Source: Pseudovirgaria hyperparasitica (taxonomy: Eukaryota). Taken from it: a DNA stretch of 64,000 nt. This document shows, in pieces, positions 34,015-59,766 of the stretch (position 1 is its first letter; each line of letters begins with the position of its first letter). A program made the translations under genes and the position numbers. The notes below the pieces were generated by a model, which had not been told where the DNA came from, searched no databases, and was given only the letters and a program-made list of their open reading frames with translations. Location of the stretch: the NCBI GenBank assembly GCA_010093815.1, contig ML996569.1, one strand, 5' to 3'.

Positions 34015-34786
34015 TATTAGACACGTGGCCTACCAAGTAATTACACATGTATATAGTAGTTATATATAAGTAGTTGTAAGGAGGTAGGCTCCACGCACTA
34101 ACTAACTATACTAAAAGGACCGAATCTTAAAGCTACTACTTCAAGGGTAGAGCATACTACTTATATATAACTACTATATATATATAGAATCAACTAGTAG
34201 GCCACGTGCTCCTTATGTACCTAATATTATCTCCCTTCTTAAAGGCGCGTGTCCTTACGCGTTATGGGCATGCTACCTTATAAAAGATAAACTAAACTAG
34301 CCGTAACGGGCCTAGTATACGCGCTAGCCATACTAGGCCTAGTATAAACTATATATATATAATCGATATTCGTAATACCGCCTCTAGTACTAGATACGCT
34401 AACTTACTATAGTAACGTTACTACTATATTATCTATTATATATATAAAGTATATATAATATAGTAAGCTAAATAGAATCGTATAAAATTTAATAATAGTT
34501 AACTAGACCGAGAGTTAAACCCGTAACCCTATAGTAGCTTTAAGATTATATAAGGAGGCGGGCTCTATATACTAACTAACTATACTAAAAGGACCGAATC
34601 TTAAAGCTACTACTTTAAGGGTAGAGTATACTACTTATATACGACTACTATATACATGTAGAATCAACTAGTAGGCCACGTGCTCCTTACGTGCCTAATA
34701 GTAGTATACTCTACCCTTAAAGTAGTAGCTTTAAGATTCGGTTCTTTTAGTATAGTTAGTTAGTATATAGAGTCTATCTTCTTATA
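34015..34786 (+). mobile_element. Solo LTR of the TRIM family, split by a TRIM insertion
   Basis: 34015-34074 plus 34706-34786 rebuild the LTR seen at 35114-35253; flanked by TSD TATAC (34010-34014 and 34787-34791). Confidence 0.85.
34075..34700 (-). mobile_element. TRIM (miniature non-autonomous LTR element), copy 1, 626 bp
   Basis: 152-bp direct repeats 34075-34226 and 34549-34700; 322-bp non-coding interior; minus-strand PPT beside 34226; TSD GTAGT (34070-34074 and 34701-34705). Confidence 0.9.
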
Positions 34787-35479
34787 TATACGGAGGTAGA
34801 CTTAGTAGTATTAGAATCTAAACCCTAAGAAGTATCCGAGAATATATTAATTTCTATTATATCTTTAGACTTCTTTAGTATAAGATATTAGTTAATAGTA
34901 TACTTAATATATTATAATATACTAAAGGCTATTTAAGTATATTACTCTAATAGATTTATATTAAAAGTAGTATATATTCTAACTATAAAGGTAAGATCTA
35001 GACGTGTACTAGTAATAAGATAATTAAGTAACCTAATTAGTTATATATATATAAGCTAGTATTCTTAATTAATAATTTCTTCTAATCTTATTAGAAAGGT
35101 ATTTATATTAACTTATTAGGCACGTGCCTACTAGTTAATTATACATGTATATAGTAGTTATATATAAGTAGTATACTCTACCCTTAAAGTAGTAGCTTTA
35201 AGATTTAGTTCTTTTAGTATAGTTAGTTAGTATATAGAGCCCGCCTTCTTATATAATCTTAAAGCTACTATAGGGTCACGGGTTTAACTCTTAGTCTAGT
35301 TAACTATTATTAAATTTTATATGATTCCGTTTAGCTTACCACGTTATATATACTTTATATATATAATAGATAATATAGTAGTAATATTATTACGGTAAGT
35401 TAGCGTGTCTAGTACTAGAGGCGGTATTACGAATATTAATTATATATATATAGTTTATACTAGGCCTAGTGTAGCTAGC

Positions 35480-38400
35480 TATAAAGAGTAAAGACGTAGG
35501 ATAGTAGTCTAACAGTTTATAGAGAGACATAGGAATGTATTTATAGAGTAATCTTACTCTTATATAAGGTTGATTCCTAACAAGTAGGAATCGGTTTATA
35601 TAGTCTACTTATATAGTAACCTCGCTTAACTTAGCTAACTTAACCTAGCTCTAGCCACTACGTGGCTATATAGATTAGAATAGTCTATATAGGTCCGTTA
35701 TAGTTCCCGTCCTAATAATATCCTTCTTCTTTTTATACTTCGCCCTAAAGTACTTAAGTATATATAATTCTAAGTCTCTATAATCTATTATATACCTATA
35801 TATCTATAACTAAGTTCCTATAACGTTATAACTATCCTTAATATAGGTGAACTCGAGATTCTAGTTTACTTTTATTAGTTTATACACGCGCTTATCCCTT
35901 ACTTCGTGGCTACTACCTAGGACACGTAATCGCTACTTTAGTCGAGTATATATTTAGCTTCGCTCGCCTTTAATTTTATTCTCTAGTATATCTATCTTAC
36001 TCTTAAGGTAAGTCGTTAATTCATATACTATCTTCCCTAGTTTAGGTTTAGAAGGGTCTATAGTAGTCTATTCTTATTAGAACTAGTCCTATATAACCTA
36101 TTCGCGTTATTATAGTTACTGATTTAGCTTCGTTAATCGCTATTAAGGGTAGATGAATATTCCTTCCTTAGATCTCTAGCTAATATATATATATAGATAT
36201 CTAATACTAGTCCTATCTCTAAGCCTACCTCCTCCTCTTATAAGACTCGCTCTAAAGGCATCGCCTCCTCCCTAGCTACGCCGGCTAAGAAGCCTACCTA
36301 TCGCGGTAGTATAAAGGCGCGCTCTAAGTCGGAGAAGAGAGTAGCTAGGGCTACTACTACTACTACCTCTACCACTAATATAGCTACTAGTCGCTCTAAT
36401 CTAGGTAATCCTAGTACTAAACTTATGGATAAAGTGGTTATAGGTTCTCCTCTTACTCTAAAGCGCACGCCGTCTACTCTACCTCCTCTAGAGGATAAAG
36501 AAGATCTTATTATAGACGATAATCGCGAGCCCTTACGCTTACCTACGCCGCCGTCTTACCGCTCTTCCTTCCGGTCTAATATAGACTAATTTAGTCGCTC
36601 TAGGTCCTTTTAGGACCTTAATATTTACTCTAAACCCTAGTCTACTAATAATAAGGTCTAGGTCGCCGAGGATACTAAACGTGGTTATAGTTTACGCTAT
36701 AGAAAAACGGCGAACTACGGTTTAATATACTATAAGTATATTAAGAGCTATATAGCCGGCTCTAAATATCTCTTTCGCTCTAACTCTAGTATTAGCTACT
36801 ACTCTACTAACCGCGATGGGCCTATACGCCCTATCTTTACTCTATCTACCCGCTACCGCCGCTATACCGTAACTAGTAAGACTTATCTATAGATAAGTAT
36901 AATAGGCTATCTTAATCTAGTATAATCTAAAGTAGTCCGCGCTAATATATTCTTAGGTTCCTATATATATATAAGATATATATAACGACCTTCGCGTCCG
37001 CGAGACCCTCGGGGGTCCTTATAGCCGCCTATCTACTATATAGAGGGAGTTTAGGGAGCGCTATAAGCTCTTTCTAGAGGTTATTAAAGTATAAGTTACG
37101 AGCACGTTAATTATTTTTAACACCCGTTGATTTTTCTAGCCGCCGCGAGATCCCTAGCGCCTAGGCTATCTATTCTAGGGAGTCTATTCTAGCTATAGAG
37201 GCCGTAAAGAGGATTTACTCTATCCCCCTCTATCCGTCTCACGCTACTAACGGATCTTATAAGAGGTCTACTATTTCTCCCTCTAAGTCGCCTTATAAGA
37301 GGGTATATATTCCCTTCTAGATTATTCTAGATTATATTAGCTAACTTTAGACCTAGTCGCTGCGCTCCGGCGCTTAAGGCTCTTCCCTCTAGGCTCTAAT
37401 AGATCGGGTTATTACTCTAGAGGCTAAGGTTATCGTTCTCCGCCGCTATATCGTGCGGTTAGAGAGGACTATACTAGAGGTTAGGACGGATAATAAGATA
37501 GAGGAGTAGCTCTATAGTTCTAGCTCTATATATTAGCTCTATACCTAGCTCTATATATTCTAGATCTACTATAGATGGTGCGCGCCGGCTCTATTTACCT
37601 AGCATTTATCCGTTTTAGTCCTTTTTAGACCGTTTAGATACCTATTAGCTAGTTTCTAGTAATTTAATTCTTAACTTAATAATATTATATGTACGCTCGC
37701 TTAGCTTATAACTATCGGTTTCTATATTCTAATTTTCCTTAAGTCATCTAAGTATGGGCACCGTATATAAATTAGTTTATCTCTATAAATTCTATTAGAG
37801 TACCCGAACTAGTAGCCTAGTAGTTATTAGTTCGGGTACTCTAATCTTTTATATTTTATATTAAGAGTTTAATTCTATGGTAGGGTACCTTTTTTTAGGT
37901 TCTTAGTCCTATGTTTTTCTCGTATATAATAGTCTATATTAGTCTATTCTAGACTCTTCTATATTATTCTATTATAGTATATCGCGTCGCGTTCCTAAAA
38001 TAGTTATTTATGCTTTCTTCGCGTCTAGTAACCGTATAACGCTTAAATTATAGGGCTGCTATATAGAGTTTTCCTAGTGCGCGTCTAGATTTCCTAGTTT
38101 AGTACTTCGTTCTCTATGGTATCCTTCTTCTTTTTATAACGACCGTGACGTTACTATACTTATATTAATAATACGCTATTCTATATCTTTTACTTATATA
38201 TAGCCATTATAGAACTTAAGATATATACCGCTAGTTCCCAGGTATTCTCGTCCTTAGTATAGTCCTTCTAACGGATTCTATATTTCTAAACACCGTCTTT
38301 ATTAATCCTATGTTTGATAATATGGTCCACTTCGAACACGTCTAGTCTATCTTAGGGTATAATAGAGTGTAACTACACGTTCGTGCGGCTATACACGTTA

Positions 38401-41400
38401 GATTGAAATCTTTCGAGTAGTAAGACGTGGAACACGTTATGGATTCTTATATCGCTTCCTAAGTCGAGCTTATAGACTCTTATACTAATACGACGTTTGA
38501 TTCGGAAGGGACCAGCCATTTTATAATTAAGCTTCTTATTTACTTACGATGTTCGTATATTACGGACGTTAAGAAGGACCTTATCGCCCTCCTCGTACGT
38601 CTAATCCTTAGCTAATCTATTATAGTAATTTATATACGAGTCGTTTACTTATTAGATTATAGCGCGATAGTTATGTATGGTTTCGAAGATTTTAATCGCT
38701 AATTTCTAAGCGTGGACGTTCACGTCTATTATTCGATTAAATTAGACCGTCTAAGGCTTAAAACCTATCCTTAGACTACGTCCGAGGTTCGCCTAGAAAG
38801 GTATAATATCTATTATACTATAACGACTATTATTATATACGAACTCTACTATACTTAGTAGGGAGGCCTAGTCGTCCTACTCGAAATTATAGAATATACA
38901 TAGGTAGGCCTCGAGCGTCTAGTTCTATCACTCTATCTAGCTATCCGTCTAAGGATAAAATACTATAGATATATTTCTATTTATACTTACTATTTCGTAG
39001 AATAACATCTAGAATTTAGACGTGAAGGTACTTCCTCGGTCCGTAACGATTCTTTTTAGTATACTATAGACCTTAATAATCTCGTTCTAGAACACCTACG
39101 CTAGTTCTTTAGATGTAATCGTCTTCTATACCGGGATATACCTAGATATCTTTATAAGTCTATCCACGATAATAAGAATAGAATTATAACTTATCCTAAG
39201 TATCTCGCTTAGAGGTAAGTTAACTATAAAGTCTATAGTAACGTCTTCCTATATAAAGAGAGGGGCTAAAAGAGGCTATAAATTCCTATATGGCTTATGT
39301 CTAGGGGCCTTCATTCTTTAATAAATCGGATAAGTAGCTATCTATTCTTTAATGTACTTAGGTATATCTTCCTAAAAATAGTACTAACGAATTAAGCTTA
39401 GGGTACGTATATACCTAAAGTATTCTACTAGGTTAGCGTTATAGTATCGGCTAACTACATTAAATCGCGCGTTACCCGTCGGTATATAGTACTTTCTATT
39501 ATAGTAAAGTAAGCCGTCCACGAAGGTCTACTTATAGTCTACTTTAGTCCGTAATAACCTATCTTACTATATTTTATGTAACTTTAAAACTATCGGGTCT
39601 ATCTTCTATAGATCTATAATTAACTAGGCGAGGTTAATTAGATATTCACGCTAGGCATTATCGCCCTTCCTAATAGCGCTAATAAATAGCCTACTAGAGA
39701 CTTCGGTACCGCGTCTTTAGTTACCGGCTTTGGTCTTAGAGATTCGATTACCAGTATTAACGTTAGCATCTTGCTAATCGCCTAATAACTTAAAATCTAA
39801 CCTCGTCCTTAAGAGTTAGGCCTATAGCTACTCTAGGACCCTATGGCTACTATAATTCTAGGCGCCTTCTTTATAGTTAGGTCTTCTTAACATCCTATTA
39901 GCTAGGTTTATACTTCTAGGTTAATAGTAGATTATAAAGTGAAAGTTCGTAAGCCACTTAGCCTATTAGACCTATTAACGGTTTAAAACCGTCATGCTTA
40001 TAAACCTCTTTAAGTTATAGTAATTAGTTAGTAACTCGACGTTATATATAGTACCTTTAAGATAATATCGCTACTATTTAAACGACTCTACTATTACTAG
40101 TAGCTCTTAGTTATAGATAGTATATCTAGTCTTAATATCGACCATTTTACGTGAGAAGAACATAACTAGATACTATTAGACCTTTTTAGACTTAGTTAGT
40201 CTAGGCTAGGAGAGAATATCTAAGATTATAAATCCTAACGCGTCGGTTTCGATATAGATAGGTTTAGTTAGGTCGAAGTACACTAGTAATAGGGTAGTTA
40301 TAAATGCCTCTTTGATTTTCTTAAAGAAGGCCCTTTCGCCTTCTAATAATTCTATAGACTATGATTTAATATTATACTATTTCTATCTACCGCGGACCGT
40401 AATAGACGAATCTATAGTAGTAGTACGCGCGTTAAGCGGTACTACTAGCTAGGAGAAATACTTAACGAATTTTTAGTAGTAATTAGCGAATCTAATAAAG
40501 ACACGTATATCTTAAACCGATTTTAGTTTAGGCTAGTCCACGATAGTAGCGACTCTATCCCTTTCTATGGTTATACCTTGATTAGTAATAACGAAGCTAA
40601 GGAAGTTAACGTGGTCCTAGTGGAACTCGTATTTAGATAGCTTAATATATAGCTTATATTTTTCTAGTCTATCTAGGACTACGCGTATATACTAGATATA
40701 TTCTTCTTCGTTATTAGAGAAGATAAGGATATTATTAAGGTATACGATGCACGTCGTGTTAAGTAGGTCTACTAGCGCGTTATTAATATACGCTTAGAAG
40801 GTTCCTAGCGCGTTAGTTAGTCTAAAAGGGACTACTATATACTCGAAGTATCTATAACGGGTCCTAAACGCCGTTTTCTACTTATCGCCCTTCTTAATAT
40901 ATAGGCGGTAGTAGATATCGCGTAGATCGAGCTTAGTAAAGATCTTCACGCGCCCTAGTCTATTAATAGACTTAGAGATAAGAGGTAGTAGATAATAATT
41001 CTTTCGTGTAATATTATTTAGGCTACGGTAGTTAATATATAGACGGAGACTCCTATCCTTCTTCTTTATAAAGAGGATTAGAGCTCCGGCTAGAGATATA
41101 CTAGGCCTAATCTATTCTCGTGTAAGGTTCTTTTCGATATATTCTTAGAGGACCTATAGCTCGGGTTCTAATAGAGGGTAGATAGGTCCGTATAGGGGTT
41201 ATTAACCATCTTCAAGGTTAATAGTAAGGTCAGTAGATTAGTATTAAGGTAATTCGGACGAGTCGATCGCTAACGCGATATATTAGTATATTTTATACTA
41301 ATATAGTAGGTTTTCGTCTACTTTAATACTAAGCTCTCTATTTTAAGTAAGTAAGAGGACGTAGATAGCGGAGATTACCTTTTTATAGTCCTTCTAGAAT

Positions 41401-43522
41401 TATTCGTCGTTGACTAGCTATACTAGATTCTATTATAGTAGGTACATACGCCAGCCAGCTGTTTTCTAGATGAAGTCTAGTTTCGGGTTATGTTTTTCGA
41501 GCTACGGTATACCGAGAATCATGTTAAAGGGACTATCTACCACGATAAAGGTTAAGTAGTAGGGTTTCTACTTCCCCCCGCTATCCTAGATACTATATTT
41601 AATAGTATAGGTACCCTATAATTTAATAGAACCGTCGATACTATAGAAGGTAGTATCTATTAGTACTTAAATATCGACGTTAAGTTCTCGTACTCGTTAA
41701 GTTAATATAACGTTAGTAGCTAAACCGCTATTAAGTATTATAGTCTAATGTTATCCATGAGGGACCTCGATAGGCCTAGCCTATAGTTTAATATACTAGT
41801 TAGCTAGTTATCCCTCTATTTTAGTTACGCCTATAAGTCGCGAGGGTTCCTTATAGATAGTTAGTTTTTTATATTATATACCGGGTAGTTAGGCGCGATA
41901 TGTCCTAGCTACTAGTACTTATAGTATATAACTAACTTAGTATCTATATTAGTATTCGGTAGTTTCCCTAAGCGGCACTCGGGTACTATATAGCCTATCC
42001 TACTATAGGTATAGTAGGTAACTTTAGGTTATTTATACGAGTCGTTTCTCGCGTCTCGATATATCGACTAGTAGAAAGATCCGTAGTACGGGCCTCGTCT
42101 TCTCGAGTTCGTAGAGTAGTAGCGCCTACGAGGTATTCCGCACGATCTATTACTAAACCGGTCCTCTTTAGACGATTTTATATCGGATTAGATTAATAGG
42201 GATAGTCGTGCGCCTATACGACGTTAGTTATTTATTATATACTAATATCGTTCTACGAGATTCGTGAGTGCCTAAAGGTTAGTAGAGATAGATATTATAA
42301 GGTCGATACGTTCCTTTACGCTTGGGTTAAGGGACCTTTTAAAGTCGTCGTATTATCGAACTATACAATCTTCCTTAGCTTCTCTCTAAAGAGGTCGGAG
42401 GTATTCAAGAAGTTATAACGGGGATTATCTCTCTCGCTATTAAGTCTTAAAGATATGGCTCTAAGCCTATTTACGTCGCTCGGCTCTATTACTAAAGTAT
42501 TAAAGAAGGAATTTAGTAAACGTGTTCTAGTTATACACATCCTTAGGGTGTTTAATTCGATGTACTATCTAACGTTTAGATGGCGTTAGGTCTAGGTAGT
42601 TCTATACGAACCTAATCTTATTACTATCGTTCATGAATAGATAGAAGAATCAGCTATACTAGTAAGCCTATTTATAAAAGCTCCTCCTGGTTTTACCGTC
42701 GAAGTAAGGTAGTTTCTTAGGCTAAGGTAACTAGGATAGTAATAGACTTAGTTAGACTGTTTCGGCTTAAGTTAATCTATATTAGTATAGATTAGTTACT
42801 ACTAGTACTAAAGCGCGTAGTACGGCTTCAAGTCTAGCGGTTTATCCTCACGCTTCGTCAAGTTCACAAAGTTACTACTCAAGCTAAGCCTAACGCTACC
42901 TCTCCGTGTATAGCTTAGTATATATATTATCGTAAGGCGTGGTTAACGTTAGTCGGTTCTAACGAATTAATTCGTTAACGTTAATAGGGTCTAGTCTTAT
43001 AGTAAGGATAGGTCTAGTATAGTATAAACTAGACCGCGATAGAGTATAATAGACTCCTTCCTTATTATCTAGGTAATCTTTCACGGTTATATAGAATACC
43101 GTACTAGTTATTAGTGCGATAGCCTATAGGGTATACTTATTAGTGGAGGTGGTTATAGAGAGACTATTCTCTTCGTTTAGATTTAGAGAGAGTCTCTTAT
43201 ATAAGGTAGTACCACGGGTATTATAGCGCGTAGTAGGAGCTATCTCTATAAGCTACTATTATACTATATAGAGAGGAATTAAAATATAAAGAGTAAAGAC
43301 GTAGGATAGTAGTCTAATAGTTCATAGAGAGACATAGGAATATATTTATAGAGTAATCTTACTCTTATATAAGGTTGATTTCTAACGAGTAGGAATTGGT
43401 TTATACGGTCTACTTATATAGTAACCTCGCTTAACTTAGCTAACTCAACCCAGCTCTGGCCACTACGTGGCTACATGGATTAGAATAGTCCATATAGGTC
43501 CGTTGTGGTTCCCGTCCTAACA
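35480..43522 (-). mobile_element. Ty3/Gypsy chromovirus copy 1 (subfamily A), full length, RIP-inactivated
   Basis: 238-bp LTRs 35480-35717 and 43285-43522; TSD CTAGC; minus-strand gag-PR-RT-RH-IN-chromodomain relics collinear with copy 3. Confidence 0.93.
36197..37509 (+). pseudogene. RIP-mutated antisense accessory gene of Gypsy copy 1
   Basis: Homologous to 59767-61071; ATG mutated to ATA; intron positions conserved. Confidence 0.75.
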
Positions 43523-44494
43523 CTAGCGCGTATACTAGGCCTATTATAGCTAGTTTAGTTTATCTTTCGTAAGGTAGATACCTATAACGCGTAAGGGTAC
43601 GCGCCTTTAAAAAGGGGAGATATTATTAGATACGTGCCTACTAGTTAATTATACATATATATAGTAGTTATATATAAGTAGTATACTCTACCCTTGAAGT
43701 AGTAGCTTTAAGATTCGGTCCTTTTAGTATAGTTGGTTGGTGCGTGGAGCCCGCCTCCTTATATAAATATAAGGATTATAGATGTAGAATAGTAGTCTAA
43801 TAGGTTATAGGAGGATTCGGGAATATATTTAAAAGGGTAGTCTACTCTCTTAATAAGGTTAATTCCTAAAGAGTAGGAATTAAGTATATACGGCCTACTT
43901 ATATAGTAGTCTCGCTTATTCTAGCTGGCTTACCCTAGGTCCACCTATTACGGACTATACTAGACTATAGTATTCTAGTTAAGTCTATTCTAGTATTAGC
44001 CCTAATAATATTCTTCTTCTTTTTATGCTTCGCCCTAAAGTACTTAGCTATATATAAATCTATAATTCTATAAGCGTTATATTTATACGCGTATCTAATT
44101 AAATCTATATAACGTTATTAATAGTCTTTATATTAGTAAACTTAAGCTCTAGTTTACTTTTATTTATATACGCGCTTATCTCTCACTTTATAGCTACTAC
44201 CTTAGAGGTAGCTCCGCGGGTTATATAACTACTATATTAACTAAGCTTATATTTAGTTCTCTTATTCTAAATTTTCTTCTCTAGTATATCTATCTTACTC
44301 TTAAGGTAAGTCGTTAATTTATATACTATCTCCTTTAGTTTAGATCCGTTCGGGTCTAGAGTAGTCTATTTTAGTTAGAGCTGGTTCTATATAATCTATT
44401 TGCGTTATTATAGTTACTAATTTAGCTTCTTTAATTACTTTTAAGGCTAAATAAGTATTCTACTCTTAGATCTCTAGCTAATATATATATATAG

Positions 44495-45799
44495 ATATCT
44501 AATACTAGTCCTATTTCTAAGCCTACCTCCTCCTCTCGTAAGACTTACTCTAAAGAGATTATCTCTACCCCGGCTATACCGACTAAAAAATCTACTTATT
44601 ATAGTAGTATAAAGGCGCGCTCTAAGTTAGAGAAGAAGGTAGCTAAGGCTACTACTACTATTACTACTAATATAGCCACTAGTTGCTCTAATCTAGGTAA
44701 TTCTAGTACTAGTATTACGGAAGAGGTAGCTATAAAGCCTATCTATACCTACTTGCGCCGCCTATCTACTCTATTTTCTTTAGAGGATAAAGAAGATCTT
44801 ATTATAGATAATAATTAAGAGTTTACGTCTTCGCCGCCTCGCTCTAAACACCGTTCCTCTTTTTAGTCTAATATAGACCGACTTAGTTACTCTAGGTCCT
44901 TTTAGGACCTTAATATTTACTCTAAACCTAGCCCTAGTAATAATAAGGTCTAGGTCGCCGAAGATACTAAACGTAGTTATAGTTTACGCTATAGGAAAAC
45001 GGCGAACTACGGTTTAATATACTTTAAGTATATTAAGGCTCACGCTACCGGCTCTAAATATCTCTTCCACTCTAACTCTAGTATTAGCTACTACTCTACT
45101 AACTACGACGGGCCTATATACCTAATCTTTAAGCTCCCTATCTACTACCGCCGCTATACTATCCTTAGTAAAGTTTATCTTTAGGTAAGTCTATTAGGCT
45201 ATTTTAGTCTAGGGTAATCTAAAGTCGTCCATGCTAATACGTTTTTAGATTTCTATTTATATATAAGATATATATAACGATCTTCGCGTCCGCGAGACTC
45301 TTAGTAGTTCTAGCAGTTACCTAGCTTCTATACGTAGGGAGTTTAGAGAGTACTATAAGCTCTTCCTAGAGGTTATTAAAGTATAAGTTTAGAAACCGTT
45401 AATTATTATTAACCTTAGCTTATAATTTTTAGTCGCCGCGAGATTCCTAGCGCTTAGACTACCTATTCTAGGGAGTTGGTTTTAGCTACTAAGGCCGTAG
45501 AAGAGATTTATACTATTTCTTTCCGCCCGCCTTATACTACTAACGGGTCTTATAAGAGATCTACTAGTTCTCCTTCTAAGTTACCTTATAAGAGGGTATA
45601 TATTCTATTCTAGATTATTCTAGACCGTGTTAGCTAACTTTAGGTCTAATCGCTCCGCTCTAGCGCTTAGTTATTATCTTACTAGGCTCTAACTAAGCGC
45701 GTGGTTACTCTAGAGGATAAGGTCTCTAACCTCCGTTACTCTATTACTTAGTTAGTTCGTTCGCTATACTCTAAGAGTAATAATAAGATAGAGGAGTAG
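44495..45799 (+). pseudogene. RIP-mutated antisense accessory gene of Gypsy copy 2
   Basis: Near-identical to the reverse complement of 59767-61071 apart from transitions; intron donor GTAAGT retained at ~45185. Confidence 0.78.
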
Positions 45800-48700
45800 C
45801 TCTATAGCTCTATTTACTAGGGTTTCTATATAGTATGTATTAGCTCTATCTACCTGGTTTCTATCCGTTTTAGTCCTTTTTAGACCGTTTAGATACCTAT
45901 CTACTAGTTTTCTAGTAATTTAATTCTTAACTTAATAATATTATGTACGTTCTTATTTATTCTATAACTATTAAATTTTAGGTTCTAATTTCCTTTAAGT
46001 TACTTAAGTATAGGTATCGTATATAAATTAGTTTATCTCTCTAAATTATATTAGAGTACCCGAACTAGTAGCCTAGTGGTTATTAGTTCGGGTACTCTAA
46101 CCTTTTATATTATATATTACGAGTTTAATTCCGTAGTAGGGTACCTTTTTAGTTTCTTAGTCCTATATTCTTCTCGTATATAATAGTCTATATTAGTCCA
46201 TTCTAGACTTCTCTATATTATTCTATTATAATATATCGCGTCGTGTACCTATAACGGTTATTTACGTTTTCTTCGCGTTTAGTAACCATGCATCGCTTAA
46301 ATTATGGGGCTGCCTTATAGAGTTTTTCTAGTGTACGTTTAGAATTCGTAATTCGATACTTTATTCTCTATAGTATTCTTCTTCTTTTTATAACGGCCCC
46401 GACGGCGCTAGGTTTACGGTAGTAACGTGTTATCCTATAACCTCTATTTATATATAGCTATCGCGGTACTTAAGATATATACTATAGGTTTCTAGGTGTC
46501 CTTATCCTCGGTGTAGTTCTTCCAACGAATTTAATACTTTTAGATACCGTTCTCGTCGAGCCCATGTTCGATAATATAGTCTACTTTATATACGTCTAGT
46601 CTATCTTAGGGTATAATAGAGTATAATTATACGTTCGTGCGTTTATACACGTTAGGTTAAAACCTTTTAAGTAATAAGACGTGGAATATATTATAGACTT
46701 TTATATTATTTCCTAGGTCGAGCTCGTAGGCTCTTATACTAATATAACGTTTAATTCGGAAGGGACTAGCCATTTTATAATCGAGCTTTTTATTTACTCG
46801 CGATATTTATATATTATAGACGTTAAGAAGGACTTTGTCTCCCTCCTTATACGCTTAATCTTTAACTAACCTATTATAGTACTTTATATATGACTTATTC
46901 GCTTACTAGATTATTACGTAATAGTTACGTGCGGTTTTAAAGATTTTAATTGCTAGTTCCTACGTATAGACGTTAACATCTATCGTTCGGTTAAACTAGA
47001 CTATATAAGGTTCGAAATCTATCCTTAGACTATATTCTAGGTTTGCCTAGAAGGGCGTAATACCTATTATACTATAACGACTATTATTATACGCGAATTC
47101 TACTATACTTAGTAGAGAGGCCTAGTTATCTTATTTAAAATTATAGAATGCACGAAGGTAGGCCTCGAGCGTTTGGTTCTATCGCTCTATCTAACTATCT
47201 ATTTATAGATGGAATACTATTAATATGTTTCTATTTATACTAGCTATTTCGTAGAATAACGTCTAGAATTTAGACGTGAATATACTCCCTCGGTCCGTAA
47301 CGATCCTTTTTAGTATACCATAGACCTTAATAATCTTATTCTAGAATACTTATACTAGTTCTTTTAATATAATTATCTTCTATATAGGGATATACCTAGA
47401 CATCTTTATAAGTCTATCTATGATAATAAGAATTAAATTATAACTTATTCTAAGCATCTTGCTTAGAGGTAAGTTAACTATAAAATCTATAGTAATATCT
47501 TCCTATATAAAGAGGGGGACTAGTAGAGGCTATAAGTTCCTATATGGCTTATGCCTAGGTACCTTTATTCTTTAATAAATTAGATAAGTAGCTATCTATT
47601 CTTCGACGTACTTAGGTATATCTTTCTAAAAATAGTACTAATAAATCGAGCTTAGGGTGCGTATATACCCAAAATATCCTATTAGGTTAGTGTTATAGTA
47701 TCGGCTAACTATAGTAAATCGTGCGTTACCCGTCGGTATATAGTACTTTCTATTATAGTAGAGTAAGCTATCTATAAAGGTCTACTTATAGTCTACTTCG
47801 GTCTATAATAACCTATCTTACTATATTTTACGTAACTTTAAAACTATCGGGTCTATCTTTTATAGATCCACGATTAACTAGGCGAGGTCTACTTAATATA
47901 CACGCTAGGTACTATCGCCCTCCCTAATAGCGCCGATAAATGGCTCGCTAGGGACTTTGGTACTACGTCTTTAGTTACCGGCTTCGGTCTTATAAATTCG
48001 ATTACCGGTATTAGCGTTAGTATCTTACTAATTATTAGATAACTTATTATCTAATCTCGTCCTTAAGAGTTAGGCCTATAGCTACTCTAGGACCCTATAG
48101 CTACTATAATTCTAGGCGTCTTCTTTATAGTTAGGTCTTCTTAATATTCTATTAGCTAGGTTTATACTTCTAGGTTAATAGTAGATTATAAAGTAGAAAT
48201 TTATAAGCTACTTAGCCTATTAAATCTATTAACGATTTAAAACTATCGTGCTTATAAACCCCTTTAAGTTATAGTAATTAGTTAGTAACTTAACGTTATA
48301 TATAGTACCTTTAAGATAATATCGCCACTACTTAAACAACTCTACTATTACTAGTAGCTCTTAGTTATAAATAGTATATCTAGTCTTAACATCAGCTATC
48401 TTACACAAGAAGAACGTAACTAGATACTATTAGACCTTTTTAGACTCTATTAGTCTAGGCTAGAAGAGTATACCCGAGATTATAAATCCTAATATATTAG
48501 TTTCGACGCGAATAGGTTTAGTTAGATTAAAGTATACTAGTAATAGGGCGGTTATAAATACTTCTTTAATCTTCTTGAAGAATATTCTTTCGACCTTAGT
48601 TAATTTAATAGATTATGATTTAATATTACGCTATTTCTATCTACTACGGACCGTAATAGACGAGTTAGTAGTAGTAGTATACGTATTAAGTAGTGCGGCT

Positions 48701-49187
48701 AAACGGGAGAAGTATTTAATAAATTTTTAGTAGTAGTTAGCGAAGCTAATAAAGACACGTATATCTTAAACGGATTTTAGTTGAGGCTAGTCTATAATAG
48801 TAGTAACTCTATCTTTCTCTATGGTTATATCTTAATTAGTAATAACGAAGCTAAGAAAGTTAATATAGTCCTAATAGAACTCGCATTTGGATAGCTTAAT
48901 ATATAGCTTATACTTTTCTAGTCTATCTAGAACTATATATATATGCTAGATATACTCCTCCTTATTATCTAAGAAGATAAGGATATTATCTAGGTACATG
49001 ATATATATCGTATCGAGTAGGCCTACTAGCATGTTATTAATATACGCTTAGAAGGTGCCTAGCGCGTTAGTTAGTCTAAAAGGGACCATAGTATACTTAA
49101 AGTATCTATAACGGGTCCTAAAAGCCGTTTTTTATTCGTCGCCTTCCTTAATACGAAGGCGATAGTAGATATTATATAGATTAAGCT

Positions 49188-51434
49188 CCCGAACGACAAA
49201 GCGCCCGGGCTAGACGGAATTCCGAATCGATGCCTTAAGAGGACCATATAGGCGACCTTACCGATTATAGGCCATATATTCCGAGCGTGCGCCCGTATAG
49301 GATACTACCTATAGAGCTTCTAAACCGTATATATAGTTATACTCCTAAAACTAGGGAAGAGCCTAAACACGCCGAAGGGATGGAGGCCGATCGCCCTCCT
49401 CTCCTACCTTAGTAAGGTACTAGAAGCTACGATTACTAAGAAGATAAGTATAGTAGTATAGGTACACGGCCTTCTCCTAGTAAACCAGAAGGCGAAGGTA
49501 GGAAGCTCCCTAATCATAGCCATTTAATATATCCTTAAGGTCATCTAGACTATATAGAAATAAGAACGAGTCGTTACGCTACTCTCCCTAGACATAGTAG
49601 AGGCGTTTAATAAGGTAAACCATATAAGACTTATCTATAACCTCCGGATAAGGCGAATACCTAAGTGGATTATACGATTTATATAGTCCTTCCTCGCGTA
49701 AAGGACTACTTAAATATATATCCCCGGATACCGAAGCGAATATAAGAAGACGGTATACGGTATCCCGTAAGGGAGTACTATCTCCCCGATTCTCTTCCTC
49801 TTCTTTATAGTAGACCTCCTTTAGAGAATAGAATATATAGAGGTAGTTAGATACGCGGACGATATATACCTCCTCGCGGTCGATAGTAGTACTAGTAGAA
49901 TATATACACGACTCGAACAAGACCACGAGAAATGCGTCTAGTAGATAAAGCGCTATGGAGTAAAATTCGCACCTGAAAAATACTAGCTTATATACTTTAT
50001 TAACTACTATAGAGGATAGACTACTAGGGAGAGGGCACGTCGCCCCTAAATCGACGCCTTTATAGAACTACTAGTATAGAGTATATAAGCACTCGGCGTT
50101 ATAATCGATAATAAGCTAAAATAGGGACCATAGGTGGTATACGCCGTCTCTAGAGCCCTCTAGATAGAAACCGCTATATACCGGATTACGGTATCCACGT
50201 GGGGAATAGCCCGGGATAAGGCGAGATAGCTATACGTCTCCCTAGCACGCCTAGCCTTTATATACGGACACGAGTACTAGTATACGGCCCTTACATAAGC
50301 TCGGCGGGTAAAGCTTAAGTCCATATAAAACCGTATACTCCGCCTTATCTCCGGCGTATATAAAGCTACTAACACGACGCTCCTCTAACGCGAGATAAAC
50401 GTAACGAGTATATAGAACTTCTACTAGATATAGAGACTTATATACTTTACTAAATAATAAGTATAAGAACGTGGAGAAGATAGGGTATATACCTTCGCCG
50501 TACTACGTACACGTATCCGCGCGTATTACTAGGCCCTCCCTACTATAGAATAAACTCGAGTATAATATAAATACTATATAGAGGCGGACTCGAGCTAGAC
50601 CGTATAGGAGGTTCGAAATAACCCAGATACCGTCCCGAGCTAATAGAGCCCTAAGGAGCTTAGCCGCGTTATATAGTTATAGATGTAGGATAAATAGAGG
50701 GAGGTACTTAAAGCCTAGTGGGCCTCCTAATAGGATAGGTATCTAGAATAGATCTGAGGGCCTTAGAAGGAACTAAGTAAATAGATGTATAAAGGGCTAA
50801 CGAAGGCCTAAGCATCTATACTCCTCTAAGCCTAAATAGGTACTATAGGTCTCCTATATTACCTCTACTAGAGAGGCGTCCTAGATATATCTTCCTAGTA
50901 TAAGGACTACGGCCGGAGAGGTATAATACGCCACTACCTCGCGACGTACTCTAGCCTCTATACTCTAAGATAAGCCCTTATCCGTATAATAAGGACCTCT
51001 AATATTACGCGATAGCTTAATAAGTACTCTAAGGATATCGCCCGATAGATGCTCGTATACCTTCCTCTCCCCTAGTTCTAGTAGACCCGCGTATATATAC
51101 TAGAAGAAGCCTAATATATGCCGGAAGAACCCCGGTATACGTCGGAAGAACCCCGGGAGAACCGCGATTATTAGTTAAGGGCAGCCCTTAACTAATAATC
51201 TCCGTACCTACACGTGCTACCTAAGGGTAAACCATTATAATATAGGCTATAGGCCTATAGGTAGCCCCTAGGGCTATATATATATAAAGAACGAGAGGAT
51301 AGATAGAGCGTAGTTATGGATATAAGGGAGTTTTTCCTATTCGTAGGTTTCTTCTTATATAGTAGCTTAGACTAGAGGAGGCATGCGCCTATAGAGTGGT
51401 ACTCTACCTAGTTTACTAATATTATTATTATTAT
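49188..51434 (+). mobile_element. 5'-truncated non-LTR retrotransposon (LINE, probably Tad1 clade), RIP-mutated
   Basis: Starts at PNDKAPGLDGIPN, followed by WRPIALLSYLSKVLE, GIP*GSTISPILF and YADD. Has a C-terminal CCHC-like relic, a (TAT)n tail and a 13-bp TSD TATAGATTAAGCT (49175-49187 and 51435-51447). Confidence 0.92.
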
Positions 51435-52201
51435 TATAGATTAAGCTTAGTAAAGATCTTTACGCGTTCTAGTCTATCGATAGACTTAGAGATAAGAGGT
51501 AGTAGATAATAATTCTTTCGTGTAATATTATTTAGGCTATAGTAGTTAATATATAGACGGAGACTCCTATCCTTCTTCTTTATAAAGAGGATTAGAGCTC
51601 CGGCTAGAGATATACTAGACCTAATCTATCCTCGCGTAAGGTTCTTTTTAATATATTCTCGAAGGGCTTATAACTCAGGTTCTAAAAGAGGGTAGATGGG
51701 TCTATATAGAGGTTACTAGCTATCTTTAAGATTAATAGTAAGGTCGGTAGGTTAGTATTAAGGTAGTTTAGAGGAATTAATTACTAACGTGATATATTAG
51801 TATATTTTATACTAATGTAGTAGGTTTTCGTCTACTTTAATACTAAGCTTACTATTTTACGTAAGTAAGAGTACGTAGATAGTAGAGATCGCCTTCTTAT
51901 AATCTTTCTAGAATTATTCGTTGTCGATAAGCTATACTAGTTCCTATTAAGATAGATTTATACGCTAGCTAGCTATCTTCTTAAGGAAGTCTAGTTTTAG
52001 GTTATATTTCTTAAGCTACGGTATACCTAGAATTATATTAAAGGGACTATCTACCACGATAAAGGTTAAGTAGTAGAGTTTCTATTTCCCTCCGCTATCC
52101 TACATTAGGAAAGATACAGCGCTCCCAAGTACTCCTAAGTACTCCCTAAGTATTCTTTCATCCTATTATATCCATCGGGCGGACCTACTTACTATCTATC
52201 C

Positions 52202-52960: not shown

Positions 52961-54068
52961 NACCATCTAACTTTATTTTAATTTAAGTATCGGTCGGGGT
53001 AGATAGACTACTAGTTAAGGTAGCTATAACTAGGGATAATAAGTTAGTAATAGACTTATTCATACTACACGTATATATACTATCATTTACCGTTCCCGTA
53101 GTTACTTAGAGCGGGTCTATACTTAATACCCGAGATAGTATAATCTTATCTGTAGCTACTACTAGTGGTATAGAACTCTTACCTATATCTAATAGCGCAT
53201 AAGATGATTCGAGGTACTTATCTAACTAGTTTAGAGTATCCGACTTATCCTTTTCGTAGTAGTTAGTACCTATATAGTCTCTATAACTTTAGTATATACT
53301 TATATTACCCGATAGCTTAGACTCCTCGCTCTCGTCTAAGTCATCTATATCTACTTTAGAGAAGTTATCTAGGTTATCTTTATATAGGTTTATATATATA
53401 GTATCTAGGTTAATTAGTATTAGTACTATAAATACCAATACTATTAGCGATTTTTAAATGTAGTCGATATGGTAGGGCGCCTAGTTTAACTATATTAGGC
53501 TTAGCGCTCGCTATTCCTCTATATAATTTAGCACGCGATTAGATAAAGGTATATATATATATACCTAGTATTAGTAGAGAGCGTGCGAATCTATAGCGAC
53601 CGAAGGACGAGTTCGGCGCCTACCCGCTACTATATTCGTTAAGGGCATGCCTTATTATAACATATATAATAGTAATCGTAGATGGTAGGATTAGTCGGAA
53701 CATACTACTATAGTACTCCTTTAATCCAAGGAATCTTAGGGACTATAGTAGAACCAACTTTAGAGCCTTAATTACTACTAGCCCTACTGTCAGGGCTGAC
53801 ACCAGGATGGACTCAACTGGACCACTATGGTCTAGTACGGTCCGTGACAGGTGGACCTAGGTTAAGCCAGCTAGAATAAGCGAGACCACTATATAAGTAG
53901 GCCGCACATACTTGATTCCTACTCTTTAGGAATCAACCTCGTTAGGAGAGTAGACTACCCTTTTAAATATATTCCCGAATCCTCCTATGACCTATTAGAC
54001 TACTATCCTACGTCTATAATCCTTACATTTTAATTCCTCTTTATATAGCACGACGGTAGTTTATAGGA

Positions 54069-55451
54069 ATGGCTCTAACCACTCGTCATAACACTCGTGG
54101 CACCGCCTCTTATGGTAGACCTTCTCCCAACCTAAATGAGGAGAATAGTCTACCTATAACTACCCCCACCGATGACCACACCTTATAGGCCATCGCACCG
54201 ATAACTCGCACGATATTCCGTGTAACTATAGAAGATATTATAGAACACGAGGATGGAGTCCATCATACTCCATCTCGGTCTAGTTCGAACCATACTAGAC
54301 CTAACCTTAACACGAGGCTAGACCTTGTTAACGTTAATGAGTTAATCCGTTAGAATCGCCTAACGTTAACCACACCTCATAACGACATGTATACTAGACT
54401 ACACGAAGAGAGGCAACGATAGGTTTAACTCGAGTAATAACTACGCGAACTCGACGAAGCTCGAGGACATACTACGAGACTTAAAGCTGTATTACGCGCT
54501 TTAGTTCTAGTAACGACTAATCTATATTCACATGGACCCATACCAACTAAAACGATCTATCCTAGTCCACTACTATCCCAATTGCCCCGACCTAAGAAAC
54601 CACCTCACTTCGATAGTAAAAGTAGAAAGAGTTTCCACGCATAGGCTTACTAATGTAGCCGATTCTTCCATCTATTCACGAACGACAGCGATAAAATTAG
54701 ATTCGCCTAGAACTACCTCGACCCGACGCCTTTAGAACGTTAGATGGCACACCGAATTAAACATCCTAAGGATGCCCATAACTGGGACACGTTCACCGAA
54801 TTTCTCCTCTAATGTTTTGGCGACAGGGCTGAACGACGCGACTAGGCCTAGGGCCATATCTTCGAGACTCGACAACGAGATAATTAGTCACCGTTATAAC
54901 TCCTTAAATACCTTCGGCCCCTCTAGAGAGAAGCCGAAGAAGATTATATGATTCGATAGTGCGACGACTTTAAACGGTCCCTCGCCCTAAATGTAAAGGA
55001 CCGTCTCGACCTTACAATGATAATCCCTATAGACCTCTAAGCTCTTATAAACCTCGCGGAGCGATACTAGCGCATAATGAATAATTAACGCCGCGCTGGT
55101 GTACGACTATCCCTAACGATCTAATCTAACGCAAAATCGTCTAACTAAAACCGATTTAGTAATAGATCTCGCGGGACGTCACGAGGCCACTACTACGCCT
55201 CGAATTCAAAACCACGCGGATCGTATCGTGGATCTCCCTACTAATCGACACATCGAGATGCGAGGACCGACTCGCATAAACGATCTAAAGTCACTTACTA
55301 TACCTATGGTAGAATAGGCTATATAGCACCTAAGTGCCGTTCGGGGAAGCCACCGAGTGCTAATATAACTAACTAACTAGTCATATACTATAAGTGCCAG
55401 TAGCTAGGACACATCGCGCCTAACTACCTAGCATAGAATATAAAAAACTAA
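54069..55451 (+). pseudogene. gag: gag with two CCHC zinc knuckles (RIP stops)
   Basis: ATG at 54069. Knuckle relics (C)YT(C)GRIG(H)IAPKC and (C)YKCQ*LGHIAPN(C) at ~55296-55427. Ends at AAAAAAC TAA. Confidence 0.85.
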
Positions 55452-58400
55452 TAGCCTACGAGAAACCCTCGCGACTTATAGGCGCGACCATAATAGAGGG
55501 GTAATCCTCTAAATAGTACATTAAACTATAGGCTAGACCTATCGAGGTCCCTCGTGGATAATATTAGACTATAATACTCGATAGTAGGTCGGCCACTAAC
55601 GTTATGTCGACCCAACGAGCACGAGAACTTAACGCCGACATCTAAGCTCTAATAAGTGCCATGTTCCATGGCATCGACGGTCCCATTAAGTTATACGGCA
55701 CCTATACCATCAAATACGGCATCTAGGACAGCGGAGGGAAATGGAAACTCTACTGCTCAACCTTCATCGTGGCAGACAGTCCCTTCGATATAATCCTAGG
55801 TATGCCATAGCTTAAGAAATATAACCCAAAACTAGACTTCCTTAAGAAGATAGCTGGCTGGCGTATGAACCCACCTTAATGGGAACTAGTGTAGCTTGTC
55901 GACGACGAACAATTCCAGAAAGATTGCGAAAAGGCGATCTCTACTATCTACGTGCTCTCACTCACGTAAAATGGTAAGCTTAATATTAAAGTGGACGAAA
56001 ACCTACTATATTAGTATAAAATGTACTAATATGTCGCGTCAGCGATCGATTCCTCCGAACTACCTTAATACTAACCTACCGACCTTACTATTGATCTCGA
56101 AGACGGCTAGTAACCTCTACATGGACCCATCTACCCTCTTTTAGAACCTGAGTTATAAGCCCTTTAAGAATACATCGAAAAGAACCTTACGCGAGGGTGG
56201 ATTAGGCCTAGTATATCCCTAGCCGGAGCTCTAATCCTCTTTGTAAAGAAGAAGAATAGGAGCCTCCGTCTATGTGTTGACTACCGTAGCCTAAATAACA
56301 TCACGCGAAAGAATTATTACCTACTACCTCTTATCTCTAAGTCTATCGATAGACTAGGGCGCGTAAAGATCTTTACTAAGCTCGATCTACGTGACGCCTA
56401 CTATCGCCTTCGTATTAAGGAAGGCGACGAATGGAAAACGGCTTTTAGGACCTATTATGGACACTTTAAGTACACCGTGGTCCCTTTTAGACTAACTAAC
56501 GCGCCAGGCACCTTCCAAGCGTACATTAATAACGCGCTAGTAGGCCTACTCGACACGACATGTATCGTGTACCTAGATGATATCCTTATCTTCTTAGATA
56601 ACGAGGAGGAGCATATCTAGCACGTACGTGCAGTCCTAGATAGGCTAGAAAAGCACAAGCTATACATCAAGCTATCCAAATGCGAGTTCCATTAGGACCA
56701 TATTAACTTTCTTAGCTTCGTTATTACTAATCAAGGTATAACCATGGAGAGAGATAGAGTTACTACTATTATGGACTGGCCTAAACTAAAATCCGTTCGA
56801 GATATACGTGTCTTCATTGGCTTCGCCAACTACTACCGAAAATTTATTAAACACTTCTCCCGTTTAGCCGCACCACTTAATACGCGTACTACTACCACCG
56901 ACTCGTCCATTACGGTCTGTGGTAGACAGAAACAGTATAATATCGAATCATAACCTATTAAATTAACTAAGGTCGAAAGAATATCCTTCGAGAAGATTAA
57001 AGAAGCATTCCTAACCGCCCTATTACTAGTGCACTTCGACCCGACTAAACCTATTCACGTCGAAACTAATGTATTAGGATTTACAATCTTAGGTATACTC
57101 TCCTAGCCTAGACCAATAGAGTCTAAAAAGGTCTAATGGCATCTAGTTGCGTTCTTCTCGCGCAAGATGGCCGACGTCGAGACTAGATACACTATTCATG
57201 ACCAAGAGCTACTAGTAATAGTAGAGTCGTTTAAGTAGTGGCGATATTATCTTAAAGGTGCCATGCATGACGTTGAGTTACTAACTAATTACTATAACTT
57301 AAAGGGGTTTATAAGCACGACGGTTTTAAATCGTCGATAGGTTCGATAGGCTAAGTGGCTTATAAATTTCTACTTTATAATCTACCATCGACCTAGAAGT
57401 ATAAACCCAGCTAATAGGATGTTAAGAAGACCTAACTATGAAGAAGGCGCCTAGGATCATAGTAGCTATAGGGTCCTAGAGTAGCTGTAGGCCCAACTCT
57501 CAAGGACGAGGTTAGATAATAAGTTATCCGACGATTAGCGAGATGCTAACACCGATACCGGTAATCGAATTTATAAGACCGAAGCCGGTGACTAAAGACG
57601 CGGTACCGAAGTCCCCAGCGAGCCATTTATCGGCGCTGTTAGGGAGGGCGATAGTACCCGGCGTGTATGTTAAGTAGACCTCGCCTAGTTGATCGTGGAT
57701 CTGTAAAAGACAGACCCGATAGTTTTGAAGTTGCGTAAAATGTAGCAAGATAGGTTATTACGGACCGAAGTGGACTATAAGTGGACCTTCGTGGACGGCT
57801 TGCTCCACTATGATGGAAAGTACTATGTGCCGATAGGTAACGCACGATTTACCGTAGTTAGCCGATACCATAACGCTAACCTAGCAGGACATTTCAGGTA
57901 TGTACGCACCCTAAGCTCGATTCGTTAGTACTATTTTTAGGAAGATATGCCTAAGTACGTCGAAGAATAGATAGCCACTTATCCGATTTATTAAAGAACA
58001 AAGGCACCTAGGTATAAGCCATATAGGAACTTGCAGCCTCTACTAGTCCCCCTCTTTATATAGGAAGATGTTACTATGGATTTTATAGTTAACTTGCCTC
58101 CAAGCGAGATGCTTAGGATAAGTTATAATTCAATTCTTATTATCGTGGATAGACTTATAAAGATATCTAGGTACGTCCCTATGTGGAAGACGATCACATT
58201 AAAAGAACTAGTACAAGTATTCTAGAATGAGATTATTAAGGTCCATGGTGTACTAAAAAGGATCGTTACGGACCGAGGGAGTACATTCACGTCCAAATTC
58301 TAGACGTCATTCTACGAAATGGCCGGCATGAACAGAAACATGTTAATAGCATTCCATCTATAAATAGATGGTTAGACAGAGCGATAGAACCAAACGCTCG

Positions 58401-59230
58401 AGGCCTACCTTCGTGCATTCTACAATTTCGAACAAGACGACTAGGCCTCTCTACTAAGTACAGCAGAATTCGCGTATAATAATAGTCGTTATAGTATAAT
58501 AGGTGTCACGCCCTTCCAGGCGAACCTAGGACGTAGTCCAAGGACAGGTTTCGAACCTTACACGGTCTAGTTCGACCGAACGATAGATGTTAACGTCCAC
58601 GCGTAGGAACTGGCGATTAAAATCTTTGAAACCGCACGTAACTATCGCGTAATGATCCAGCAAGCGAATGAGTCATATATAAAGTACTATAATAGGTTAG
58701 TTAAAGATCAAGCGTACGAGGAGGGAGACGAAGTCCTCCTTAACGTCCGTAATATACGAACGTCGCGAGTGAATAAAAAGCTCGATTATAAAATGGCTAG
58801 TCCCTTCCGAATCAAACGTCGCATCGGTATAAGAGCCTACGAGCTCGACCTAGGAAACGACATAAAAGTCTATAACGTATTCCACGTCTTATTGCTTAAA
58901 AGGTTTCGACCTAACGTGTATAAATGCACGAACGTGCAATTACACTCCATTATACCCTAAGATGGACCAGACGTGTACGAAGTGGACTATATTGTCGAAC
59001 ATGGGCTCGACGAGAACGGTGTCCAAAAGTATCGAATCCGTTGGAAGAACTGCACCGAGGATGAGGACACCTAGGAACCTGCGGTGCATATCTTAAGTGC
59101 CGCGATGGCTATATATAAACAGAGGTTATAGGATAACACGTTACTACCGTAAACCTAGCGCCGTCGGGGCCGTTGTAAAAAGAAGAAGGATGCCGTGGAA
59201 AACGAAGTGTCGAATCACGAATCCTAAACG
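55448..59230 (+). pseudogene. pol: pol: protease, RT, RNase H, integrase and chromodomain (RIP stops; end approximate)
   Basis: ILDS protease motif, [42 protein letters not shown] and chromodomain VYEVDYIVEH...YRIRWKNCTEDEDT*EP. Confidence 0.93.
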
Positions 59231-59465
59231 CACACTAGGAAAACTCTATAAGGTAGCCCTATAATTCAAGCGATGCACGGTTACCAAACGCGAAGAAAAC
59301 GTAAACAACCGTTATAGGCACGCGACGCGACACATCACAATAGAATAATATAGAGAAGTCTAGAATGGACTAACATGGACCATTACACACGAGAAGAACA
59401 TGGGACCAAGAAACTAAAAAGGTACCCCACTACGGAATTGAACTCGTGATATATAATACAAAAGG

Positions 59466-59515
59466 TTAGAGTACCCGAACTAATAACCACTGGGCCACTG
59501 GTTCGGGTGCTCTAA
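59466..59515. repeat. Conserved long inverted repeat (hairpin) between pol and the antisense gene
   Basis: TTAGAGTACCCGAACTAAT...ACTGGTTCGGGTGCTCTAA; arm mismatches are transitions only. Also present at 37795-37844 and 46051-46100. Confidence 0.85.
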
Positions 59516-59766
59516 TATAATTTAGAGAGATAAACTAATTTATATATAATGCCTACACTTAAGTGACTTAAAGGAAATCAGAACCTAAAATTCAATAGTC
59601 ACAGAATAAACAAGAACGCATATAATATCATTAAGTTAAGAATTAAATTACTAGAAAACTAGTAGACGGGTATCTAAACGGTCTAAAAAGGACCAAAACG
59701 GATAGAAACCAGGCAGACAGAGCCAACACACACCACATAGAAACCCTAGTAAACAGAGCCATAGAG

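Follow-up and report, generated by a model that had tools for sequence, protein, structure and literature searches.

Members of a family of miniature retroelements in the fungus Pseudovirgaria hyperparasitica carry, one base past the 5' long terminal repeat (LTR), a 16-nt site that is the exact reverse complement of a segment within that same LTR. The family was found in a 64,000-nt stretch of contig ML996569.1 (NCBI GenBank assembly GCA_010093815.1), and this whole stretch is referred to here as the window. The small elements at 34075-34700 and at 35115-35479 plus 43528-43763 constitute a transposing family of the TRIM type (terminal-repeat retrotransposon in miniature). We propose that this TRIM primes its reverse transcription with the 5' end of its own RNA in the manner of the Tf1 element of Schizosaccharomyces pombe. 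Judged from the sequence, we assign this reading a probability of roughly 0.65. The parts of the family in the window are as follows, with positions counted from the first letter of the window.

34075..34700, minus strand: TRIM copy 1, complete, 626 nt, with the 5-bp target-site duplication GTAGT at 34070-34074 / 34701-34705
34549..34700, minus strand: 5' LTR of copy 1, 152 nt, containing TATATAA at 34635-34641 and the putative self-primer segment at 34597-34612
34532..34547, minus strand: putative primer-binding site of copy 1, 16 nt, exact complement of the LTR segment, preceded by the spacer T at 34548
34227..34240, minus strand: polypurine tract of copy 1, AAGAAGGGAGATAA, abutting the 3' LTR on its upstream side
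34075..34226, minus strand: 3' LTR of copy 1, 152 nt, sharing the 12-nt insertion variant with this copy's 5' LTR
34015..34074, plus strand: first part of a solo LTR broken by copy 1, with the target-site duplication TATAC at 34010-34014 / 34787-34791
34706..34786, plus strand: second part of the solo LTR, of the same family as the TRIM
35115..35479, plus strand: 5' part of TRIM copy 2, with the 5' LTR at 35115-35253, the spacer T at 35254, the site at 35255-35270 and the internal domain as far as chromovirus A
35190..35205, plus strand: putative self-primer segment in the 5' LTR of copy 2, 30 nt after the first T of TATATAA (35161)
43528..43763, plus strand: 3' part of TRIM copy 2, with the remainder of the internal domain, the polypurine tract AAAAAGGGGAGATAT and the 3' LTR at 43624-43763

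Self-comparison of the window and alignments identified two full copies and one solo LTR of the family, which amount to five LTR copies in total. Copy 1 is nested within the solo LTR and copy 2 is divided by an 8-kb chromovirus. An earlier reading of this DNA, which we call the original prediction, had described a TRIM of ~0.6 kb with LTRs, and this agrees with the 626 nt of copy 1 and its LTRs of 152 nt; the LTRs of copy 2 are 139-140 nt long. The internal domain measures 322 nt and has the polypurine tract at its end. The element has no coding capacity, the longest stop-free stretch in the six frames being 49 codons. No Rfam family scored above threshold in the region 33900-35600, where the three sub-threshold matches were to miRNA models (21-26 bits against gathering thresholds of 100-110). 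The LTR ends read T[G/A]TTAGG...CCTCCTTACA in the window and TGT[C/T]AGG...CCTCCTTACA in the family form. All the structural features of a TRIM are present with the exception of the type of primer site.

Because the region is a nest of repeats, the copies could in principle be irregular deletion remnants or an artefact of assembly. However, the two copies are colinear throughout, with the same internal domain and an identity of 88-94% by segment, and the 5-bp duplications, GTAGT for copy 1 and TATAC for the solo LTR, are perfect. For copy 2 the duplication is masked by chromovirus B, which lies 4 nt beyond the end of this copy. A 12-nt insertion is present in both LTRs of copy 1 and in neither LTR of copy 2; such matching of LTR variants within each copy is expected if a single template gave rise to both LTRs at insertion. 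Public data, described below, contain hundreds of contig pieces whose flanks differ, which likewise argues against remnants or misassembly, and we regard this explanation as extremely improbable. The copies, for which the original prediction had allowed that they might prove to be non-uniform deletion derivatives, are uniform and colinear, carry duplications and belong to a transposing family.

One or two CACGTG palindromes open the U3 region of every TRIM LTR (34022-34027, 34204-34209, 34678-34683 and 35121-35126), and in copy 1 the 12-nt insertion duplicates their CACGT core. CACGTG in the U3 region is possibly a transcription-factor site and may be taken as a candidate for one.

In copy 2, the post-LTR site is AATCTTAAAGCTACTA at 35255-35270 and its reverse complement, TAGTAGCTTTAAGATT, lies at 35190-35205 within the LTR. 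The layout of copy 1 on the minus strand is identical, with the site at 34532-34547, the LTR segment at 34597-34612 and the spacer T at 34548. The site begins one base, a T, past the 5' LTR in both copies, and the LTR segment begins 30 nt past the first T of TATATAA. Exact occurrences of the 16-mer in the window number seven, namely the five LTR copies and the two post-LTR sites. When the LTRs were shuffled with their dinucleotides preserved, the longest complement to the 25 nt following the LTR was 14 nt for one copy and 15 nt for the other, and 16 nt was attained in none of the 2000 shuffles performed per copy. Exact inverted repeats of at least 16 nt within 200 nt are present at only eight loci in the whole 64-kb window: two are the TRIM pairs, three are head-to-head LTRs resulting from nesting, two are in the 8-kb elements and one is at 51166. 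The energy of the duplex calculated with RNAduplex is -31.4 kcal/mol in both TRIM copies, which none of 500 shuffles equalled, and the duplex gains a further 5 bp (ACCCT/AGGGT) beyond an internal loop. The 16-nt duplex is also present in the minimum free energy (MFE) structure of three of four folds of RNA comprising R, U5 and the site. The original prediction had noted a 16-mer after the LTR as the exact reverse complement of an LTR segment, had placed this segment about 25-30 nt past TATATAA and had described the same arrangement in copy 1; these statements are borne out, and the complementarity is far beyond chance.

The window falls into two parts of different base composition: the GC content is ~50% up to ~32 kb, and from there to the end the window is AT-rich (23-44% GC), with a run of N at 52202-52961. 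In the AT-rich part TpA/ApT is 1.5-1.8 compared with 0.72 in the gene-rich half, and (CpA+TpG)/(ApC+GpT) is 0.17-0.58 compared with 1.26. This part is marked by repeat-induced point mutation (RIP), a fungal process. The differences among the TRIM copies over six segment comparisons comprise 76 transitions and 3 transversions, an excess that fits RIP.

Contigs from public DNA runs were aligned to 34000-35500 at 80% likeness. Runs X1 and X2 represent one sample, which contains the TRIM and may be the window's own sample, so that it is not independent of the window; runs X3 and X4 represent another, independent sample with the same species label and little of the TRIM. The contig pieces matching the region numbered 1602 in X1 and 788 in X2. 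The summed word depth was 1.1-1.5e5 in the LTR bins, 1.1-3.7e4 in the internal bins and ~300 in the unique left flank, a measure that differs from copy number and is read here only as "very many". Loose ends at the LTR ends were heterogeneous, with an agreement of 0.56-0.62, as expected for many insertion sites. The family is abundant, with many different flanks. Upstream of the LTR starts, the TRIM polypurine region was found in 7 and 6 contigs among the matches listed, with an agreement of 0.98-0.99. The contigs differ from the window copies mostly by T>C and A>G, indicating that the window copies are the mutated ones. In X3/X4, a 940-nt contig holds a solo LTR that starts with TGTCAGG and shows 22 differences from copy 1, mostly in the un-RIP direction; its flanks are of normal GC content and have AAAAG on both sides, as read from loose ends at 34551 and 34676.

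Other X3/X4 contigs, at 35253-35452 and 34157-34319, contain a less-mutated site, internal domain and start of the 3' LTR. This copy is without ~26 nt of the internal domain. What stands in front of it is CTGCAGGTG beside adapter letters of the library instead of an LTR end, which may reflect truncation of the copy or a restriction-site library. When public metagenome contigs were scanned with degenerate patterns, one for the site and one for the LTR core, each matched 0 loci.

A different role for the 16-nt pairing is conceivable, in which it forms a helix between R and the leader for packaging, dimerisation or presentation of the site, and a cellular RNA such as a transfer RNA (tRNA), a tRNA half or another small RNA acts as the primer. 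U5/leader helices are indeed found in retroviral leaders, and the TRIM is predicted to have a weak one. However, the first 30 nt past the 5' LTR contain no TGG in either copy, which agrees with the absence of a TGG-type tRNA site stated by the original prediction. Since the less-mutated X3 contig shows no difference in those 30 nt among the matches listed, it is unlikely that a TGG was erased by RIP. In addition, the pairing begins 1 nt from the LTR end, precisely where a primer must sit, and no Rfam small-RNA family matches the TRIM. We consider priming by a cellular RNA improbable. A tRNA-like reading of the bases after the 16-mer was also attempted and, compared by eye with the layout of tRNA 3' ends, gave no fit. 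A tRNA gene prediction returned 0 genes in the 64-kb window.

If the TRIM relies on proteins from elsewhere, candidate sources are close at hand, as three 8-kb elements lie in the same part of the window.

35480..43522, minus strand: chromovirus A, 8 kb, inserted in TRIM copy 2, with the target-site duplication CTAGC at 35475-35479 / 43523-43527 and LTR tips the same as those of the TRIM
43768..52105, minus strand: chromovirus B, beginning 4 nt past copy 2, with a 2.26-kb foreign insertion and running into the N gap
53788..61798, plus strand: chromovirus C, the least mutated, with 240-nt LTRs TGTCAGG...AATCCTTACA and the target-site duplication CCTAC

In chromovirus C, the Pfam matches on one strand are, in order, RVT_1 (E 4.5e-21), RT_RNaseH_2, Integrase_H2C2, SH3_Tf2-1 (E 1.3e-15) and Chromo (E 2.2e-06). 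This order of reverse transcriptase, RNase H, integrase and chromodomain, which is that of Ty3/gypsy elements with a chromodomain following the integrase, indicates that the 8-kb elements are chromoviruses. Read by the coding strand, their LTRs have the form TGT[C/T]AGG...AATCCTTACA and their polypurine tract is AAAAAGAAGAAGGATAT. The TRIM and the three chromoviruses have in common a 7-nt 5' tip, TGT[C/T]AGG, and an 8-nt 3' tip, TCCTTACA; the match between their LTR ends that had been predicted is thus seen when the chromoviruses are read along their coding strand. Their polypurine tracts end similarly (GGAGATAT or GGATAT ahead of the LTR), and they share the motif TATATAAGTAG and duplications of 5 bp. 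A chromovirus that supplies enzymes in trans is therefore a plausible partner of the TRIM.

The systems closest to this TRIM are Tf1 and the Tf1/sushi group (Tf2, Tj1, Maggy, Skippy, Cft-1, Boty, Grasshopper, Afut1 and sushi-ichi). In Tf1, the RNA's initial 11 bases pair with the site, and cleavage by RNase H falls between bases 11 and 12 (PMC7175516), and priming needs a three-helix "pretzel" (PMC10085805, PMC7175516). Self-priming is common to the Tf1/sushi chromoviruses, the group to which fungal chromoviruses belong (PMC10085805). The TRIM is like these elements in that it has no tRNA-type site and in that the site after its 5' LTR is complementary to an LTR segment past the TATA box (PMC10085805, PMC7175516, PMC6934838, PMC4600332). 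It also has a polypurine tract, and the neighbouring candidate partners have chromodomain integrases. Unlike Tf1, it is non-coding with a length of 626 nt, and its complement extends over 16 nt rather than 11.

We infer, on what we regard as good grounds, both self-priming and mobilisation in trans. The TRIM RNA would start at or slightly upstream of the 16-nt LTR segment and fold back, bringing its own 5' end into pairing with the post-LTR site. Where the duplex ends, the RNase H of a reverse transcriptase would cleave the RNA, and minus-strand DNA synthesis would then be primed from the 3' end so released. A chromovirus with identical LTR tips, either from the family nested around the TRIM or from a close relative, would provide Gag, protease, reverse transcriptase/RNase H and the chromodomain integrase in trans.

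The observations in this and the next three paragraphs include those that weigh against self-priming with chromovirus proteins. The MFE z-scores of the R-U5-site RNA are ordinary, from -0.7 to -1.5. As for the helices of the Tf1 "pretzel", one between U5 (GAGCCCG..CCTTA) and the sequence following the site is predicted in both copies, with 32 and 62 of 500 shuffles as good, and a second candidate flanking helix is at the level of chance, with 204 and 246 of 500. Since the TRIM fits the central feature of Tf1 but its flanking helices are not significant, we class it as working like Tf1, short of proven membership in the self-primed class. We note a parallel between the TRIM (for example 34113-34138) and a chromovirus (53912-53936): in each, a short LTR hairpin has an arm resembling the post-LTR site as its first and the putative primer segment as its second.

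In Tf1, the site of the progeny is copied from the primer, and active lineages should therefore keep a perfect match between the two. This fits PMC11042837, according to which the 3' end of about half of the Tf1 cDNA keeps the site as a single-stranded copy. In X1, the LTR segment of the TRIM has G at 34603 in 7.5% of the summed depth (7 contigs) and at 34612 in 15.5% (14 contigs), and the solo LTR of X3/X4 has G at both. Read in LTR orientation, the window letters at these places are CpA-to-TpA changes at segment positions 10 and 1, respectively. These minority and X3/X4 letters suggest that the unmutated LTR segment probably reads C at positions 1 and 10 of 16. At the facing places of the site (35261, 35270, 34532 and 34541) there are no differences among the matches listed, and this includes the less-mutated X3 contig, which spans 35253-35452 and with it the site of copy 2. 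If the site did not covary, the native duplex may be one of 14/16, consisting of 8 bp, a C/A mismatch and 6 bp ending at the 3' end of the primer. If the site did undergo the facing TpG-to-TpA changes, the native pairing would be perfect and RIP would have altered both partners in step. The complementarity, which the original prediction proposed to check on copies corrected for RIP, is exact in the window copies, whereas in the less-mutated LTRs 2 of the 16 positions are C.

These letters also bear on the possibility that RIP inflated the 16-nt match and that the native complement was shorter or interrupted and played no part in priming. RIP-type C-to-T sites do account for two of the 16 LTR positions, RIP generally raises TA content and self-complementarity, and 6 of 746 natural RIP-mutated windows reach 13-15 nt with one mismatch. 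However, pairing over 15 nt with one mismatch occurred in none of 2000 shuffles and in 3 of the 746 natural control windows, and 16 nt in none, whereas the TRIM pairing stands 1 nt from the LTR end in both copies. Moreover, the primer's CpA is opposite TpG in the site; RIP acting on both would keep the pairing and not create it, and RIP confined to one partner breaks G-C pairs. It is thus highly improbable, in our estimate, that the match is a product of RIP.

The choice of partner is affected by how little of the TRIM is found in the chromoviruses. No homology past the tips was detected between the TRIM LTR and the chromovirus LTRs in four alignments (z 1.1-3.0). The TRIM internal domain was compared ten times with chromovirus leaders and 3' regions, with z from -1.5 to 3.95 and none reproducible; the single high value of 3.95 did not recur when the other chromovirus copy was compared. 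The chromoviruses were also inspected for a self-primer of their own: their post-LTR site TTAATTCCT, 2 nt past the LTR, matches AGGAATCAA in the LTR at 8/9 with a RIP-type mismatch, and this is no better than chance, as 402 and 299 of 500 shuffles were as good. From the original proposal of a self-priming parasite moved in trans by chromoviruses, then, the family, the site beyond chance and the shared tips stand, but no further homology to the chromoviruses was detected and their own site is at the chance level.

The true partner may instead be an unseen autonomous element with the same LTR and primer site, of which the TRIM would be an internal-deletion derivative, the chromoviruses being mere neighbours with similar tips. 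The lack of LTR-wide or internal homology to the window chromoviruses is in line with this, and so is the LTR depth, several-fold over the internal depth, which could come from solo LTRs or from other elements with the same LTR. On the other hand, there is no such element within the window, the sole consistent context upstream of the LTR starts is the TRIM polypurine region (among the matches listed), and tips that are identical over 7 nt and 8 nt accord with use of the local family's integrase. We therefore rate an unseen partner as possible but rather unlikely. We are slightly inclined to the view that the TRIM lineage possesses, by retention or by new evolution, a 16-nt self-primer and site of its own that differ from those of its helper, and that it would need no tRNA but only chromovirus proteins, with which it could have reached hundreds of LTR equivalents in one fungal genome. 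With CpA facing TpG, RIP would proceed in step on both partners and leave their pairing intact.

Classical TRIMs have a site complementary to a tRNA (tRNA-Met in plant TRIMs), whereas the site of the window TRIM pairs with its own LTR. In other respects the element is like plant and animal TRIMs: its size, short LTRs and short non-coding internal domain with a primer site and polypurine tract are comparable, and so are the 5-bp duplications, high copy number and nesting with other elements (PMC6934838). PMC6934838 describes bivalve TRIMs without a clear site and proposes no mechanism for them. Cassandra, Helenus and Ajax are non-autonomous elements with LTR parts derived from small RNAs, and the window TRIM is unlike them in being without 5S, tRNA or any other Rfam family. 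Self-priming has likewise been predicted from sequence alone for plant Tcn1-clade chromoviruses and TAR copia elements (PMC6317226), which are autonomous, unlike the TRIM. Fungal TRIMs are known as markers and in repeat libraries (PMC6934838). A full-text search of the literature found, among the matches listed and in the parts of the texts available, no TRIM or other non-autonomous LTR element with a self-primer; repeat databases may hold a prior description.

Since fungal chromoviruses self-prime, a self-primed derivative would be no great surprise. The value of the family lies in its being a minimal natural substrate and in its warning for annotation rules that require a tRNA site: TRIMs are usually recognised and classified by such a site, so software that requires one would miss or misfile a family of this kind. 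If the proposal is true, a minimal RNA of ~500 nt suffices for Tf1-type priming in cis. The smallest natural substrate would then be defined by a promoter, primer, U5, site, polypurine tract and LTR tips, and would offer a compact system for asking what the chromovirus reverse transcriptase and integrase recognise. The family also marks the build-up of repeat-rich, RIP-mutated fungal compartments by nested insertions.

Some further features of the neighbourhood were noted. The 318 nt between the solo LTR and TRIM copy 2 (34792-35109) have a summed contig depth of 2.7-4.5e3 compared with ~300 at the unique flank, which indicates that this stretch belongs to another repeat, distinct from the TRIM. 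The 2.26-kb insertion in chromovirus B (49175-51446) has a 13-nt direct repeat, TATAGATTAAGCT, at its flanks and an (ATT)n end, and a weak RVT_1 match (E 0.049) was found at 49324-49458 on the plus strand; the insertion resembles a non-LTR retrotransposon truncated at the 5' end. The length of the 8-kb elements is increased by ~2.4 kb between the chromodomain and the polypurine tract (59072-61541 in chromovirus C, with matching parts in A and B), where stop-free pieces of at least 35-50 codons on both strands gave no Pfam matches. Within this 3' region, a hairpin with perfect arms of 17-18 nt is kept in chromoviruses A and B (37794-37845 and 46051-46100).

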